Shown in pieces: positions 1-51,447 of a stretch of DNA of 54,922 nt. The first letter of the stretch is position 1. Each line of letters opens with the position of its first letter. Location of the stretch: positions 1 through 54,922 of the forward strand of contig CAZXHL010000006.1 of assembly GCA_964640545.1 (NCBI GenBank). The letters are read 5' to 3'. A program made the position numbers and the translations under genes. Origin of the DNA: an uncultured Bacteriovorax sp. Lineage in GTDB: Bacteria; Bdellovibrionota; UBA2428. A model generated the notes under the pieces. The model was not told where the DNA came from, did no database searches, and saw only the letters and a list, made by a program, of their open reading frames with translations.

Positions 1-96
1 GTAGCACTCCCCTTGTCCTGAGTAATGAATATAAATATTTAATATGACTTAGAAAGGCTACTACACGCGCCCTTACAACACTTAAGCGCGCACAGT
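1..96 (+). repeat. Partial copy (3' half, cut by window edge) of the ~220 bp palindromic intergenic element
   Basis: GCACTCCCCTTGTCCTGAGTAATGAAT...AAATATTTAA.ATGACTTAGAAA...CAACACTTAAGCGCGCACAGT closely matches the 3' half of the copy at 15607-15827. Confidence 0.9.
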
Positions 97-136
97 TTAA
101 TTAAGACCTGATTCGGGGCTTGGTATTAGGCAGTCA

Positions 137-14919: not shown

Positions 14920-15600
14920 ATGCAACACAATCCAGCGCGCTGCCCCGTTTGTAGAGAAGGACTCGGTGGCTTTTTTTGTGTCCTCGACCCTGAACACATC
15001 AACGACATTGATCGCAGTAAAACCACAAAATCCTTCCGCACCGGCGAAGTGGTTTTTGAAAGAGGCGATTCTCCTCAGGGTTTGTTCTGCATTGTAGATG
15101 GCCTCATCAAAGTTGAAACGGAACAAGAAGAGGGGAAGTCACACATTCTACGACTAGCCGGACCAGGCGAGAGCATTGGTTACCGCGCACTTTTTGGACG
15201 AAGGCGATATGAGGCGAGAGCCGTTGCCCACGAAGACTCCAAAGTCCACTTCATTCCACGCTCCACAATTGACGATCTGATGATCAAACAACCACAGCTT
15301 TCCCTAAAATTTTTAGAGCTGCTATCCGAAGACATCAAACAAGCTGAAGAGAGACTTTGCGCGGCAACTGACAAAGATAGTGCTTCGAGAATTGCGGAAA
15401 CGATTCTTTTTTTAGACTCGAACTACACTCCCGATAAACCATGGACCCGCAAAGACATCGCAGACTGGGCGGGAACAACTCCTGAGACGGTCATGAGACA
15501 GCTGACTCAGCTGGAAAACCAAGGAATGATCGCAAGTGAAGGCCGGAGAATTTTGATTACTGATCCATCATCCTTGAATCAAGTCGCCCAAACGCTCTAA
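14920..15600 (+). CDS. Crp/Fnr family transcriptional regulator with N-terminal cysteines
   Basis: CPVC...C N-terminus, cNMP-binding fold (GE..F..GD, GESIG), HTH TRKDIADWAGTTPETVMRQL. Confidence 0.9.
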   Translation: MQHNPARCPVCREGLGGFFCVLDPEHINDIDRSKTTKSFRTGEVVFERGDSPQGLFCIVDGLIKVETEQEEGKSHILRLAGPGESIGYRALFGRRRYEARAVAHEDSKVHFIPRSTIDDLMIKQPQLSLKFLELLSEDIKQAEERLCAATDKDSASRIAETILFLDSNYTPDKPWTRKDIADWAGTTPETVMRQLTQLENQGMIASEGRRILITDPSSLNQVAQTL

Positions 15601-15606
15601 ACTGGA

Positions 15607-15827
15607 ACTGTGCGCGCTTAAGTGTTGTAGGGGCGTATCTGGTCTCAGAGGCCTTTCTAAGTCATTTTAAATATTTAGGTTCAGTCGAAGGACTATGGGG
15701 TGAATTGCTGGCGCCAGCCAGCAAGAGGGGAGTGGCACTCCCCTTGTCCTGAGTAATGAATCTAAATATTTAAAATGACTTAGAAAAGCCACTAAACACG
15801 ATCTTGCAACACTTAAGCGCGCACAGT
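15607..15827 (+). repeat. Complete ~221 bp palindromic intergenic element (copy 2)
   Basis: Arms ACTGTGCGCGCTTAAGTGTTG...TTTCTAAGTCATTTTAAATATTTAG / CTAAATATTTAAAATGACTTAGAAA...CAACACTTAAGCGCGCACAGT around core AGGAC-TATGGGGTGAA-hairpin-hairpin-GTCCT. Confidence 0.92.
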
Positions 15828-15839
15828 CTAAACTTGAGC

Positions 15840-17147
15840 CTAAGTTCCCTTAGTCCCACTAGGCGCTTTAGAGAACTTGATCAGCTTTAACAAGCCGCGA
15901 GCCTCCAAAACCATAGAATCATTTTGAATCTTCTCTTGGAATTTAGAAACTTTTTTCTTTTCAGCTTCAGGCTCTTTGGCATTGTCCAAGTGTCCTTCGA
16001 GGTCGGCTTCACTTCGGGAATAAAGAGAGGCTTTGAGCTTTTTTGCTGTCTCTTCATCGAGAGGAAGAAGTGGGTAGTCAGGCTCAATGCCCTTAGCCTG
16101 AATCGATCGCCCTTTGGGCGTGAAGTATTGCGCAACAGTCACCTTCAAACCTGATCCGTCTCCGAGAGGTAAAACGGTTTGCACCGACCCCTTACCAAAG
16201 CTTTTTTGTCCCGCAATGATCGCTCGTCCCATATCTTGCAATGCACCCGCAACGATTTCACTCGCGGAAGCACTACCACCATCAATCAACACAACTAGCG
16301 GCAGGTCTGTGACCTTGTTACCCTCTTGAGCGAATAGTTTTTCTTGCGCCTTCGTGGAGCGTCCTTTGGTATAGACTACCAAGCCCTTATCATTAAAAAG
16401 GTTTACGACTTGAACGGCTTGCAAGAGGAGCCCTCCAGGATTCCCTCGAAGGTCGAGAATGATGCCTTTGATGTTTGAATTTGTCTTATGTTTTCTAATC
16501 AATTCAGCAAGGTCTTGCCCTGTGCTTTCGGAGAACGATGCGATTCTTGTGTAAAGAGTGTCCTCCTTGATCACAACTCCACGAACAGACCTCATTTTAA
16601 TGATTTCACGAGTAACATCTAACTCTATCGTTTTGCTATCACGCCCAATAGTGACTTTAATTTTCGAACCAGGGTCACCCCTCATCAATGAAACTGCTTC
16701 AGGCAAAGACATTTTCTTCGTGGAATGCTTTCCAATTTTTAAAATTACATCTCCAGCCAGAATCCCAGCCTTGTCGGCAGGAGTTCCCTCGATGGGAGAA
16801 ACAACTGTGATGTAATTTTCATCAATGCTGACTTCAACCCCTAGCCCACCGAACTTTCCAGAAGTTTCATCTTGCATTTCGCTGAAGATTTTCTTTTCTA
16901 GATATGCCGAATGCGGATCAAGATCTCGAAGCATTCCCTTGATGGCGCCTTCAATGATTTCTTCTTGAGAAACGTCGTGCACATAGTTTTCTTCGAGGTA
17001 TTGAAGAATCTTCGCAAATTTTTCTAGCGATGGGTAATCAACCTTTGCGGAAGCCTGAAAAGAGAAAGCCCCCAGCACTCCTCCGCACACAACTGATAGC
17101 AAGAGCTTCTTGGGGGATCGTAAGGAGTGAAACTTGGATTGGTTCAT
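15840..17147 (-). CDS. ctpA: S41A carboxy-terminal processing protease
   Basis: LDPHSAY, PDZ GGLGVEV, DLRGNPGGLL, SASASEIVAG, GKGSVQ motifs. Confidence 0.92.
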   Translation of the reverse strand: MNQSKFHSLRSPKKLLLSVVCGGVLGAFSFQASAKVDYPSLEKFAKILQYLEENYVHDVSQEEIIEGAIKGMLRDLDPHSAYLEKKIFSEMQDETSGKFGGLGVEVSIDENYITVVSPIEGTPADKAGILAGDVILKIGKHSTKKMSLPEAVSLMRGDPGSKIKVTIGRDSKTIELDVTREIIKMRSVRGVVIKEDTLYTRIASFSESTGQDLAELIRKHKTNSNIKGIILDLRGNPGGLLLQAVQVVNLFNDKGLVVYTKGRSTKAQEKLFAQEGNKVTDLPLVVLIDGGSASASEIVAGALQDMGRAIIAGQKSFGKGSVQTVLPLGDGSGLKVTVAQYFTPKGRSIQAKGIEPDYPLLPLDEETAKKLKASLYSRSEADLEGHLDNAKEPEAEKKKVSKFQEKIQNDSMVLEARGLLKLIKFSKAPSGTKGT

Positions 17148-28462: not shown

Positions 28463-29146
28463 ATGGAAAGAATGGAATTTGATCTCCAAAAAGGCTGGAG
28501 CAAGGGCTTAAGAATCTGCTTTGAAGAAGCTTCTTCAAGTGACGATTTCAACATCAAAACAGCTCTCCATGTGAAACAAGTTCATGGCGACAAGATCTAC
28601 GATGTTGGCCCAGAAGATCTTATGAAGATCTCCCCCCTAGCCGAGGCTGATGGAATGATGGTCCAAGGAGATTTTTTTCGCTCCTTCAAGCGCCCCCTAC
28701 TCATCAAAACGGCGGACTGTGTTCCCCTGATCTTGATCGACCGTGAGGCTGAAACGATTGCTATCATTCATGCAGGATGGAGAGGACTTGCTCAAGGCAT
28801 CCACACCAAGCTCATTGACCAGGGGCACTTTGAACCCAGTAAAACTTGGGCATGGATAGGCCCCTCTCTCAGCGGGCGAGAATTCGAAGTCAAAGAAGAC
28901 ATGTGGAGCCAGTTCCCCGAACATAAAGATCCTACAATCTTCGAGCCAGGCCCCACCTCCGACATCAAATATTTCCACACTTGGAAATACCTCGAAAAAT
29001 GCTACGACGATCTGGGACTAGAAGTCATCTACAACCCCGAAGTTAGCACCTACAGCAACGAAGCCTTCTATTCCCACCGAAGATCTATTCACAGAAACGA
29101 AGAGCGCAAAGGCCACAACTACACCTGGCTCAGATTCTACGAATAG
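28463..29146 (+). CDS. pgeF: PgeF/YfiH (laccase-like / purine nucleoside phosphorylase) family protein
   Basis: QVHG, EADG, TADCVP, HAGWRG, IGPS, FYSHRR motifs; adjacent to rluD. Confidence 0.88.
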   Translation: MERMEFDLQKGWSKGLRICFEEASSSDDFNIKTALHVKQVHGDKIYDVGPEDLMKISPLAEADGMMVQGDFFRSFKRPLLIKTADCVPLILIDREAETIAIIHAGWRGLAQGIHTKLIDQGHFEPSKTWAWIGPSLSGREFEVKEDMWSQFPEHKDPTIFEPGPTSDIKYFHTWKYLEKCYDDLGLEVIYNPEVSTYSNEAFYSHRRSIHRNEERKGHNYTWLRFYE

Positions 29147-29149
29147 CTC

Positions 29150-29369
29150 GTTGTACGCCAGAAGTGCTTGGTAGAGCGCGCGAGTATCATTTCTAAATCA
29201 GTTGAAATATTTGTGTTCATTACTCAGGACGAGGGGGAGCGCAGCCCCCCTCTGGCAAGTTTGCACTTGCCATTCACCCCCATAGTCCTTCGACTGAACC
29301 CAGATATTTCAACTGATTTAGAAACGCTCCATCTTTTTTGCGCTCTACCAAACACTTCTGGCGCACAGT
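29150..29369 (-). repeat. Complete ~220 bp palindromic intergenic element (copy 3, core on minus strand)
   Basis: Arms CGCCAGAAGTGCTTGGTAGAGCGC...TTTCTAAATCAGTTGAAATAT / ATATTTCAACTGATTTAGAAA...GCGCTCTACCAAACACTTCTGGCGCACAGT; core 29226-29289. Confidence 0.92.
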
Positions 29370-29379
29370 GAATTTACAG

Positions 29380-30525
29380 TTACTTGATCGTCGTGAAAGT
29401 CATCGGCTTGCCAGTGGCGGGATGATCCAAATACAAAGTATGGGCATGCAGAAGCATTCGTGTGAAGGTTTGCCCGCCATAAAGGTTGTCGCCCAAGATC
29501 GGAATTCCCAAAAAAGACAGATGAACTCTGATCTGGTGAGTCCTTCCCGTCTCCAATTGAACATCAAGCAGCGAGTAGTGAGAATCCTCTGCGAAATCTG
29601 ATTCCTTAAGCGAGAAGCACTTAAAAACTTCTGGTGCGAGTTTATGCAATTCGCTGACACGATTGTGATGCATGATCTTAAAATGAGTCAGGGCTTTTTT
29701 GCCAGTTAAAGGATCCACTGCAAATCGAAGCCGATTTTTGGGATCTCGCCCCAGAGGCGCTGCCAAGGAATGTTTTCCGTTCTTAAGAACTCGAAAGGCC
29801 AATTTAGAAGGGTGATCCTCTAGAGCAAGGCGAGCTTTACGGTGCAATGATGACTGCAAACTTTTGGCATTACCATCAACCCAAGCCCAATAATGTCTAC
29901 CAGCGAGCTTCTTCGCAAACTGAAGCGACAAAGCTTCATGTGATTTAGGATCTTTGGCAACGACCAAACAACCCGAGGTGCCTCTGTCGAGACGGTGGAC
30001 AATGCCAGGCCTCGCCTCTTCAAGGACCTGATCTCCCCAACTTAAATGCTCGTTATTGGGGGCGACGTAGTTGTTCTTAAGAAGCCAAGCGACCAAAGTT
30101 TCTTCCAGTGGAACTCCGGCCCCGGGATGGACCGTTAAACCAGCGGGCTTGTTGATGACCATGATGTGATCGTCTTCGAATAAAATCTCCGGAGATTTTG
30201 GGAAACGAAAGTCCAAATCTTTCTTTCCAATCATTGAGTTCATCTCAGATTTTGAAAGAGGTTCTTGCTTTTTAGTTGAGGAATCTTCTCCGACAAAATC
30301 ATCTACTTCTGGATTCAACTCCAGTCGCTGCCCCACCTCAAGACGAGCACTCGCTTTGGCAATGGAACCATTCAATAGAAAAAGATCTCTCGAAATGAGT
30401 TTGGACCACCGGCTACGAGAAATATCGGGGAAATGCTCGGATAGAAAAACGTCTAGGCGCTTGGTCACGAGACCTTGCTCAACTTCGACGCCTAATTGTA
30501 TGGGAAAGTGCTTTTTCAGGTCCAT
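29380..30525 (-). CDS. rluD: RluA/RluD family 23S rRNA pseudouridine synthase with S4 domain
   Basis: RLDVFL S4 domain, NKPAGLTVHPG, HRLDRGTSG, TGRTHQIRVH, LGDNLYG motifs. Confidence 0.9.
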   Translation of the reverse strand: MDLKKHFPIQLGVEVEQGLVTKRLDVFLSEHFPDISRSRWSKLISRDLFLLNGSIAKASARLEVGQRLELNPEVDDFVGEDSSTKKQEPLSKSEMNSMIGKKDLDFRFPKSPEILFEDDHIMVINKPAGLTVHPGAGVPLEETLVAWLLKNNYVAPNNEHLSWGDQVLEEARPGIVHRLDRGTSGCLVVAKDPKSHEALSLQFAKKLAGRHYWAWVDGNAKSLQSSLHRKARLALEDHPSKLAFRVLKNGKHSLAAPLGRDPKNRLRFAVDPLTGKKALTHFKIMHHNRVSELHKLAPEVFKCFSLKESDFAEDSHYSLLDVQLETGRTHQIRVHLSFLGIPILGDNLYGGQTFTRMLLHAHTLYLDHPATGKPMTFTTIK

Positions 30526-46367: not shown

Positions 46368-46754
46368 ATGTCTGAAATTCGCCCTGAACTTTTCTACACC
46401 AAAGAACACGAATGGATTAAAAAAACTAACAATCCAAAAGTATTTCAAATGGGAATCACTGACTTTGCGCAATCCGCTCTTGGCGATGTGACTTATCTAG
46501 AACTTCCTGAATTGGATTCCACAATTTCTCAAAATGATGTTGTCGGAAGTATTGAGTCCGTAAAATCAGTTTCAGAACTCTTTGCACCTCTAAGCGGAAA
46601 AGTCACAGCAAGGAATGAGTCGCTTTTGGATGACCCTTCTCCCCTGAACTCTTCCCCCTATGATGATGCTTGGCTACTCGAGATCGAAATCACGAATGAA
46701 AGTGAACTCAGTCAACTGCTAGGCCCCGAAGCTTACGCCTCTGTAGCTCAATAG
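46368..46754 (+). CDS. gcvH: Glycine cleavage system H protein
   Basis: TKEHEW, GITDFAQ.ALGD, lipoyl ESVK. Confidence 0.96.
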   Translation: MSEIRPELFYTKEHEWIKKTNNPKVFQMGITDFAQSALGDVTYLELPELDSTISQNDVVGSIESVKSVSELFAPLSGKVTARNESLLDDPSPLNSSPYDDAWLLEIEITNESELSQLLGPEAYASVAQ

Positions 46755-46799
46755 GTTTGGCTCAATAGTGTTAGCTCAATAGTTTTGACTTAATAATTT
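46744..46799. repeat. 14-bp tandem repeat, four copies, overlapping the gcvH stop
   Basis: TAGCTCAATAGGTT / TGGCTCAATAGTGT / TAGCTCAATAGTTT / TGACTTAATAATTT. Confidence 0.75.
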
Positions 46800-51230: not shown

Positions 51231-51447
51231 ACTGTGCGCGGTAAAAAGTGGAAAGCCCTAAAAGCTCAGGCTCTCAATCATTCTAAATATTTGGATTTGT
51301 TACTCAGGACAGGGGGAGCGCAGCCCCCCTCTGGCAAGTTGGCACTTGCCATTCACCCCCATAGTCCTAAGCACAAACCAACTATTTAGAATGATTGAGA
51401 ACCCGAACTACGGCTTTTATGGCTTTCCACTTTTTACCGCGCACAGT
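51231..51447 (-). repeat. Complete ~217 bp palindromic intergenic element (copy 4, core on minus strand)
   Basis: Arms ACTGTGCGCGGTAAAAAGTGGAAAGCC...CTCAATCATTCTAAATA / TATTTAGAATGATTGAG...GGCTTTCCACTTTTTACCGCGCACAGT; core 51306-51368. Confidence 0.92.

Follow-up and report, generated by a model that had tools for sequence, protein, structure and literature searches.

Between two convergent open reading frames (ORFs) in a draft metagenome-assembled genome of an uncultured Bacteriovorax sp. lies an imperfect palindrome of 219 nt, which fills the gap between the two genes and is one of four copies of the same repeat family in the window (Table 1). The window is the whole 54,922 nt of contig C6 of this genome (G000), a short-read assembly of 2.9 Mb in 219 contigs. 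The copy between the two ORFs, at 29151-29369, is referred to as copy 3. The stop codon of the left-hand ORF is found at the same position in a genome of the same genus (G001) and is, therefore, native. Copy 3 is short and noncoding, as is usual for MITEs: it contains no internal ORF of at least 80 aa, and the sole ORF overlapping it is a spurious frame of 87 aa that runs into the neighbouring gene. Its predicted fold has a minimum free energy of -116.9 kcal/mol, with outer arms of 28 nt and inner arms of 30 nt, both pairs of arms being 93% complementary. The left terminus of copy 3 is degenerate, with TTGTACGCC in place of ACTGTGCGCC. Copy 1 is present only as a half because it is cut by the start of the contig.

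Copy 3 was also found in independent assemblies. The 24 sequencing runs are all of DNA and were used as contigs, and the contigs of four runs were compared with the copy 3 region. A contig of 534 nt spans 28970-29503 with 0 differences, and a second one, of 542 nt, has 2 differences. An empty allele of copy 3 was not seen among the contigs of these four runs, none of which joined across the element. A contig of 151 nt from a strain that is roughly 94% identical departs from the window just past the stop codon of the left-hand gene and is too short to interpret.

Table 1 Features of the window and partner insertion sequences (IS); positions without a contig or locus name are those of the window
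Feature	Position	Strand	Remarks
Copy 1	1..97	-	Subfamily B; half only
Copy 2	15607..15827	-	Subfamily B; core inverted; between convergent ORFs 14920-15600 (+) and 15840-17147 (-)
Left neighbour ORF, 227 aa	28463..29146	+	Stop codon 4 nt before copy 3
Copy 3, probable fold-back MITE	29151..29369	+	Subfamily E, single member; core in + orientation
Copy 3, outer left arm	29152..29179	.	Terminal inverted repeat (TIR); pairs with 29340-29367; nearest to E/F-type IS ends
Copy 3, inner left arm	29190..29219	.	Pairs with 29295-29324; without IS counterpart
Copy 3, core hairpin 1	29233..29250	+	Sequence type common to subfamilies A and E2
Copy 3, core hairpin 2	29253..29272	+	Both sides changed in 4/8 pairs across the family
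Copy 3, inner right arm	29295..29324	.	Partner of 29190-29219
Copy 3, outer right arm	29340..29367	.	TIR; 20/30 positions match the right end of the C2 IS
Right neighbour ORF, 381 aa	29380..30525	-	Convergent with the left ORF; stop codon 10 nt after copy 3
Copy 4	51231..51447	+	Subfamily A; between convergent ORFs
A-type IS	L079:2001-3199		Conserved ACTGTGCGC termini
IS, 1200 bp	G000 C2:29459-30658		TIR matches at 22/23 positions; transposase 56.6% identical to that of L079
Partial IS	G000 C75:3-413		Conserved ACTGTGCGC termini

Extent, structure and placement of the family

A search of the genome contigs with an nhmmer profile built from three copies gave 97 hits, which fall into 53 loci. 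Full-length copies were obtained at 25 of these, and many others are cut by contig ends, which shows that the repeat interrupts the assembly at dozens of points. Many of the copies other than copy 3 were confirmed by metagenome contigs with an identity of 99.3-100%. Full-length copies measure 217-232 nt. Every one of them folds into one long hairpin (minimum free energy -107.7 to -139.8 kcal/mol), the arms of which pair over roughly 75 nt each, that is, beyond the TIR alone. Alignment of the 25 copies (alignment A1) allowed the subfamilies A (n=5), B (n=9), C (n=3), D (n=3), E (n=1), E2 (n=1), and the divergent F (n=3) to be distinguished. The termini of all 25 aligned copies read ACTGTGCGC...GCGCACAGT, and in 22 copies the terminal 8 nt are exact.

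A poorly paired and asymmetric middle region is retained in 25/25 copies. It comprises columns 26-48 and 191-218 of A1, corresponding to about 29176-29189 and 29325-29345 in copy 3, and is hypervariable: 19 types were counted among the 25 copies at a threshold of 85%, with the remainder of the element being nearly invariant within subfamilies. In subfamily B, the stems are about 96-100% identical. The idea that the middle region is copied from the flanks, as in guide- or bridge-type systems, was rejected: the longest k-mer shared by it with the flanks of its own copy had a mean length of 7.76, versus 7.59 for the flanks of other copies.

Apart from the full-length copies, a number of incomplete or deviating forms were observed. 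A copy with an internal deletion, of about 150 nt and with both termini kept, is located at C91:1712-1862, and a truncated fragment consisting of the left arm and half of the core at C29:20112-20177. A hairpin of 238 nt at C2:11672-11909 (locus L023:73-310) has the same two-hairpin core combined with arms and termini that are entirely different. Its perfect terminal repeat of 29 nt is unrelated to the IS ends, and the hairpin is unique in the genome. A core with a fold-back can, thus, exist without the TIRs of the family.

In a short-read MAG, palindromic repeats are easily misassembled as fold-backs, and apparent mosaics could result from chimeric paths. The metagenome locus L092, with an element at about 2001-2216, has flanks that form a perfect inverted repeat of 15 nt, such that the contig leaves the element via the reverse complement of the flank through which it entered. 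In sequencing run X17, a joint of opposite strands was seen at window positions 29211/29302. Both are probably fold-back assembly artefacts, a source of error worth bearing in mind when palindromic repeats in MAGs are read.

The family is narrowly distributed. Among 31 genomes compared by BLAST, the element was detected in G000 and in one genome of another genus (G010), 29 of the 30 relatives being without it. Counts of the terminus pattern agree with this, being 22 in G000, 1 in G010, and 0 in each of the 29 others. The copy in G010 shares 96.9% identity with copy 2 but has unrelated flanks. When one genome per species was scanned for the exact core, 18 loci were retrieved, and the full element was present only in L046 (JAACVK010000103.1); the other 17 loci contain short chance matches at most.

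Both syntenic sites examined in G001, those of copies 3 and 4, are empty. The copy 3 site consists of a spacer of 18 nt with a small hairpin, bounded by the same stop codons. At the copy 4 site (L055:2440-2450), the element is absent, and the convergent genes overlap by 11 nt (TTAAACCGTAA); in the genome studied here, the C-termini of both genes are kept on either side of the element. The copy 2 site was uninformative as an empty-site test in G001 because its left side is not syntenic. Dispersed copies, 53 loci in all, that differ in presence or absence between relatives are as expected of a MITE. The small hairpin at the empty copy 3 site (L012:2148-2172) has a 10 bp stem, AAACTAGGAC GGTG GTCCTAGTTT, and extends over the stop codon of the gene on the right. 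With AGGAC/GTCCT in its stem, it is similar to the basal helix of the MITE core, possibly by coincidence.

On both sides, the flanks of the copies follow the consensus TAARNTTWA. In a strict 9 bp in-register comparison, the two flanks of a copy match at 4.0/9 positions, the same as in cross pairs. Only when flank lengths of 8-11 were allowed did the two flanks of a copy resemble one another more closely than they did the flanks of other copies (permutation p 0.00125). As direct repeats, the flanks are imperfect, with 2-9 matches of 8-11 positions even where the bodies of the copies are identical, and the strong target consensus confounds the test. Such imperfect repeats next to identical bodies mean either that target-site duplication is unproven or that the bodies were homogenised after insertion. 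Two complete A-type ISs are flanked by TAAGATTTA / TAAGATTCA (8/9 positions) and CTAAGATTTA / TTAAGTTTTA (8/10).

The family marks convergent gene ends as preferred landing sites. Placement between convergent ORFs was found for 15/24 copies, compared to 421/2443 junctions (17%) in the background (binomial p 9e-7), and these copies often lie 4-10 nt from the stop codons. A target resembling TAA-N3-TTA, which carries a stop codon on each strand, in combination with tolerance of insertions, would direct copies to the gaps between convergent genes.

Covariation of the arms and the ends of partner insertion sequences

According to the original prediction, which was based on the four copies in the window, the arms diverge between copies but remain complementary within each copy. 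This was confirmed using the 25 full-length copies: the complementarity of a left arm to its own right arm averages 0.952, while left arms of different subfamilies are 0.693 identical, and the best-matching right arm of each left arm belongs to its own subfamily in 25/25 copies. The statements made about the sequences themselves all proved correct, namely that there are at least three arm subfamilies with variants mirrored within the same copy, that copies 3 and 4 have nearly identical cores (98% over 58 nt), and that GGTTCAGTCGA adjoins the core in both copy 2 and copy 3.

Standard pairs make up 94.3% of the 1695 pair cells in the 25 copies, versus 79.5% in shuffles. Both sides have changed in 38/71 modelled pairs, a count reached in 0/500 shuffles; in a control in which the partners were slid by 1-3 columns, 8-15 pairs were changed on both sides. 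Decay of identical MITE copies does not give this pattern, as had been argued beforehand. The covariation extends to both small core hairpins (helices 5 and 6). A tree that combined the left arms with the complemented right arms bore out the expectation that the left and right arms of the same subfamily cluster: the subfamily labels require 6 changes, the minimum possible, and the left/right label requires 15. This tree places the two arms of the same copy as sisters in E, E2, and F_C107. The covariation of the arms is real.

A scan of the metagenome with the A-type terminus revealed 57 loci, most of which are copies of 220 nt or halves at contig ends. An element of 1.2 kb with the same termini and a single ORF of 360 aa is present in L079 and L095. 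The flanks of these metagenome loci are 99.3-100% identical to contigs of G000 (99.8-100% for L079 and L095), indicating that they are from the same population, and the IS is located where the G000 contigs end. As is usual for MITEs, the genome thus also contains an autonomous element with these TIRs.

The first 30 nt of both arms of each copy were compared with the available IS ends. The closest IS was the A-type one for both arms of the A, C, D, and F_C107 copies (22-27 identities) and, by its end, the C75 IS for both arms of the B copies (22-25 identities). For E2, F_C34, and F_C21, with both arms, and for E, with the right arm, it was the C2 IS (19-24). In 49/50 arms, the IS end with the best match agrees with the type expected of the subfamily, the exception being the degenerate left arm of copy 3. 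The outer 22-30 nt of the MITE equal the IS TIRs. The match of the ISs to the MITE profile is confined to about 40 terminal nt, which indicates that the inner arms and the core are not derived from these ISs. At least three IS lineages that differ in their TIRs are co-resident, and each of the three outer-arm types (A/C/D, B, and E/F) corresponds to one of them. With the outer arms being the TIRs of three IS lineages, their covariation is as predicted from the end specificity of transposases. The prediction had offered templating of one arm by the other or selection for a long duplex as causes of arm matching. No special mechanism of this kind is needed for the outer arms; for the inner arms, either may apply.

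The transposase of the partner IS is only distantly related to described families. In a comparison with the NCBIfam IS1 model NF033558, the 360 aa protein obtained an E value of 2.5e-10 and 40.6 bits over residues 4-163 only, the cut-off being 100, and it does not, therefore, belong to the IS1 family at the curated cut-off. It does reach the cut-off of 28 for the IS1/IS1595 zinc-binding domain (NF050000), with 28 bits. Pfam gave nothing above threshold for this protein, nor was a Pfam domain present in any of the 120 homologues listed among the 256 found. In 26 transposase sequences, C4, C7, C34, and C37 are invariant, as are D118, D146, D206, and D247, with E260 nearly so. A structure model built on these 26 sequences (pLDDT 87.7) was best matched in Foldseek by the ISCth4 transposase, retroviral integrases (MMTV / RSV), and Mos1, with probability 1.00 and E values from 4e-5. 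On the basis of the conserved residues and the model, the protein is a transposase with a Zn-ribbon, an HTH, and a DDE domain that is distantly IS1-like, a label that is to be taken loosely.

Like IS1, the partner IS combines an N-terminal zinc motif, an HTH, and a DDE domain with a length of 1.2 kb and flanking repeats of ~9 bp. IS1 itself has a two-ORF frameshift arrangement. Unlike IS1, the partner IS has a single ORF of 360 aa and a score far below the IS1 cut-off; its termini, ACTGTGCGC..., are presumably also unlike those of IS1. The transposase family was detected in 8/18 relatives of the same family, with the same CTGTGCG...CGCACAG ends. The 1.2 kb IS group looks like an unclassified branch near IS1/IS1595.

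Maintenance of complementary arms

The stretch at 29151-29369 is probably one copy of a nonautonomous fold-back MITE with the TIRs of co-resident ISs as its outer arms and with a fold-back that is kept at the DNA level. The IS transposases would mobilise the copies in trans, and as both outer arms of a copy would have to fit the same transposase, they would covary. Copies would land at AT-rich TAARNTTWA sites and be bordered by imperfect direct repeats of 9-10 bp. The inner arms would most likely stay matched because mobilisation continues only in lineages with a long fold-back that is intact. Conversion between the arms or template switching during replication would help in this process by turning single mismatches into new Watson-Crick pairs.

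The mismatches in the arms bear on the level at which the fold-back is kept. In the 25 copies, 47 G:T, 63 A:C, and 124 other mismatches were counted; in subfamilies with at least three members (A, B, C, D, and F), the changes on a single side comprise 7 G:T, 8 A:C, and 10 others. One-side-only (wobble) states are rare in the arms. The orientation of the core in co-directional gene contexts is mixed (2 same, 3 opposite). The lack of both an excess of G:T and a bias in core orientation argues for a constraint on DNA and not on RNA. The complementarity of the inner arms is strand-symmetric, which points to selection that keeps the fold-back intact or to templated correction.

Templated correction as the main force, with template switching or arm-to-arm conversion in situ making complementarity a mutational by-product that needs no selection, is a possible reading, although it would not be our first choice. 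Template switching in quasipalindromes copies one arm from the other and perfects an imperfect inverted repeat; it has been established in E. coli and has been proposed to maintain stems and to create multi-base compensatory changes in them (PMC7202029, PMC8794818). The demonstrations were made with short reporter palindromes, and for RNA genes the mechanism was deduced; for the arms of a MITE it is only one candidate contributor. Several observations are in line with it. Within the near-identical subfamilies A-D, there are 7 cells in which a double change kept the Watson-Crick pair versus 24 cells with a change on a single side. Sister copies resolved an ancestral C:A mismatch (A1 columns 51/188) in opposite directions, one having T:A and two having C:G. 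Some of the compensations are transversions (T:A to A:T, G:C to T:A), wobble intermediates being scarce, and a variant in the population has T:A in place of the T:G pair 29211/29303. In addition, both arms of the A/C/D copies are closer to the left end of the IS (22-27/30) than to its right end (19-23/30). On the other hand, all copies of A, and likewise all copies of D, have left/right mismatches in common that persisted while the copies spread, which means that any templated correction is slow relative to this spread. The asymmetric and poorly paired middle region was not erased in any of the 25 copies. The stem sequence of the B copies is itself conserved next to a highly diverged middle region, which calls for a constraint on the stem or for homogenisation between copies, neutral templating alone being insufficient. 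If templated arm correction were shown, the family would provide a natural test bed for quasipalindrome template switching.

Rather doubtful, but still to be weighed next to selection for an intact fold-back, is concerted evolution, in which homologous recombination or gene conversion among dispersed copies and between their inverted arms would make the conserved parts uniform, shuffle modules, and produce arm matching as a side effect. Module exchange between copies had been part of the original prediction and is partly supported, being suggested by the mosaic composition of the subfamilies. One outer-arm type is common to A, C, and D; one hairpin-1 type is common to A, E, and E2 and another to B and C; a hairpin-2 type is common to A, D, and E; and a junction type is common to B and E. 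All four combinations of junction and hairpin-1 types occur. The arm tree groups A+C+D (93/91), while the core tree groups B+C (64/91) and A+D+E (76/73); these trees exclude the F copies, the core of which does not align, and the groups tested were named after the data had been seen. The exchange of modules stands insofar as the arm data reject A+D+E (p-AU 0.005) and A+E+E2 (0.04). It falls short insofar as these data do not reject B+C (0.079) and the core data do not reject A+C+D (0.225), the AU tests on such short alignments being mostly nonsignificant. Identical bodies in copies with imperfect flanking repeats would also fit concerted evolution. Conversion between copies alone does not, however, match a left arm to its right arm, and the mosaics are of a kind that chimeric short-read assembly could mimic.

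A further reading, which we regard as unlikely, is that the inner fold-back and the core, which occur once with unrelated termini (C2:11672-11909), are not IS debris but form a self-standing module that was captured by three types of IS ends, with arms matched mainly by template switching and with the core as an essential cis-acting site for a host or transposase factor. If true, the family would be a natural record of palindrome self-correction, that is, of 'compensatory' evolution without selection on RNA.

An RNA-level explanation of the matching arms is unlikely, and a structured RNA (a gene, a 3'-UTR element, a bidirectional terminator, or an RNase III target) with a stem selected as RNA is the least probable of the readings considered here. 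The folding of each copy into one long hairpin, the reach of the covariation into the two core hairpins, and the compensatory changes at the RNA level reported for Bacillus bcr1 (PMC3184786) would fit such an RNA. They are countered by the absence of an excess of G:T over A:C on either strand, the mixed orientation of the core relative to the neighbouring genes, and the identity of the termini with IS inverted repeats. Rfam had no match at the gathering score in the whole window, and a search with copy 4 up to an E value of 10 gave only chance-level hits (best E value 0.21, 17.7 bits versus a gathering score of 84). Neither a curated match nor strand-specific covariation with wobble, by which a structured RNA family is recognised, was thus found. 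An intrinsic terminator would have a GC-rich stem directly followed by a T-run; the flanks of the elements conform to TAARNTTWA and not to a T-run. A terminator scan, which models loops of 3-8 nt and is blind to a long hairpin, found no terminator-like site in 15607-15827 or 29151-29369. Integron attC sites, REP/RAYT elements, CRISPR, a sigma-54 promoter, and Tn7-like or V(D)J-like heptamer ends were discarded, on reading of the sequence, for a misfit of context or spacing.

Relation to known repeats

IS-derived bacterial MITEs such as MITEAba12 and the Correia elements of Neisseria are small, noncoding elements with TIRs shared with an autonomous IS and with dispersed intergenic copies. Relatives have empty sites in place of them, and the elements are bordered by short direct repeats and fold back into a secondary structure. 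The present family resembles them in being noncoding, in its IS TIRs, its dispersed copies, and its empty sites, and in its fold-back. It differs from MITEAba12 and the Correia elements in the pairing of arms of ~75 nt, in having three types of TIRs for three IS lineages, in a core that is not IS-derived, and in a partner transposase from a group without a Pfam model.

The ERIC or IRU sequences of enterobacteria are intergenic imperfect palindromes with compensatory changes that keep the stem. The bcr1 repeat of the Bacillus cereus group is described as an intergenic imperfect palindrome of a type measuring 125-155 bp, in which compensatory changes keep a long stem; it has flanking direct repeats and a nonconserved genomic distribution, and the compensation is read as acting at the level of RNA (PMC3184786). 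The family described here is likewise an intergenic imperfect palindrome with a long compensated stem. Unlike bcr1 and ERIC / IRU, it shows no strand asymmetry, and its termini are IS ends. A bias for convergent gene ends is known for REP and SPRITE sequences (PMC3184786). REP and BIME sequences differ from the present family in that REPs are 20-40 bp long and tied to RAYT transposases, not to the termini of DDE ISs, and such tags are absent here.

A literature search for the terminus ACTGTGCGCG gave only unrelated papers, and a search on MITEs of the IS1 family did not give a description of this family among the matches listed. The family is a new MITE family of an uncharacterised IS group, a kind of system that is already known. 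What began as a covariation signal can now be annotated as a MITE family with three lineages of poorly described DDE ISs. It also holds a warning for the discovery of RNA motifs: covariation at the level seen here (38/71 pairs, 0/500 shuffles) can arise from DNA palindromes and the end specificity of transposases instead of a functional RNA. Elsewhere in the window, at 46744-46799, a short tandem array of ~4 copies of a 14 nt unit (TAGCTCAATAG...) was observed, which is unrelated to the MITE family.
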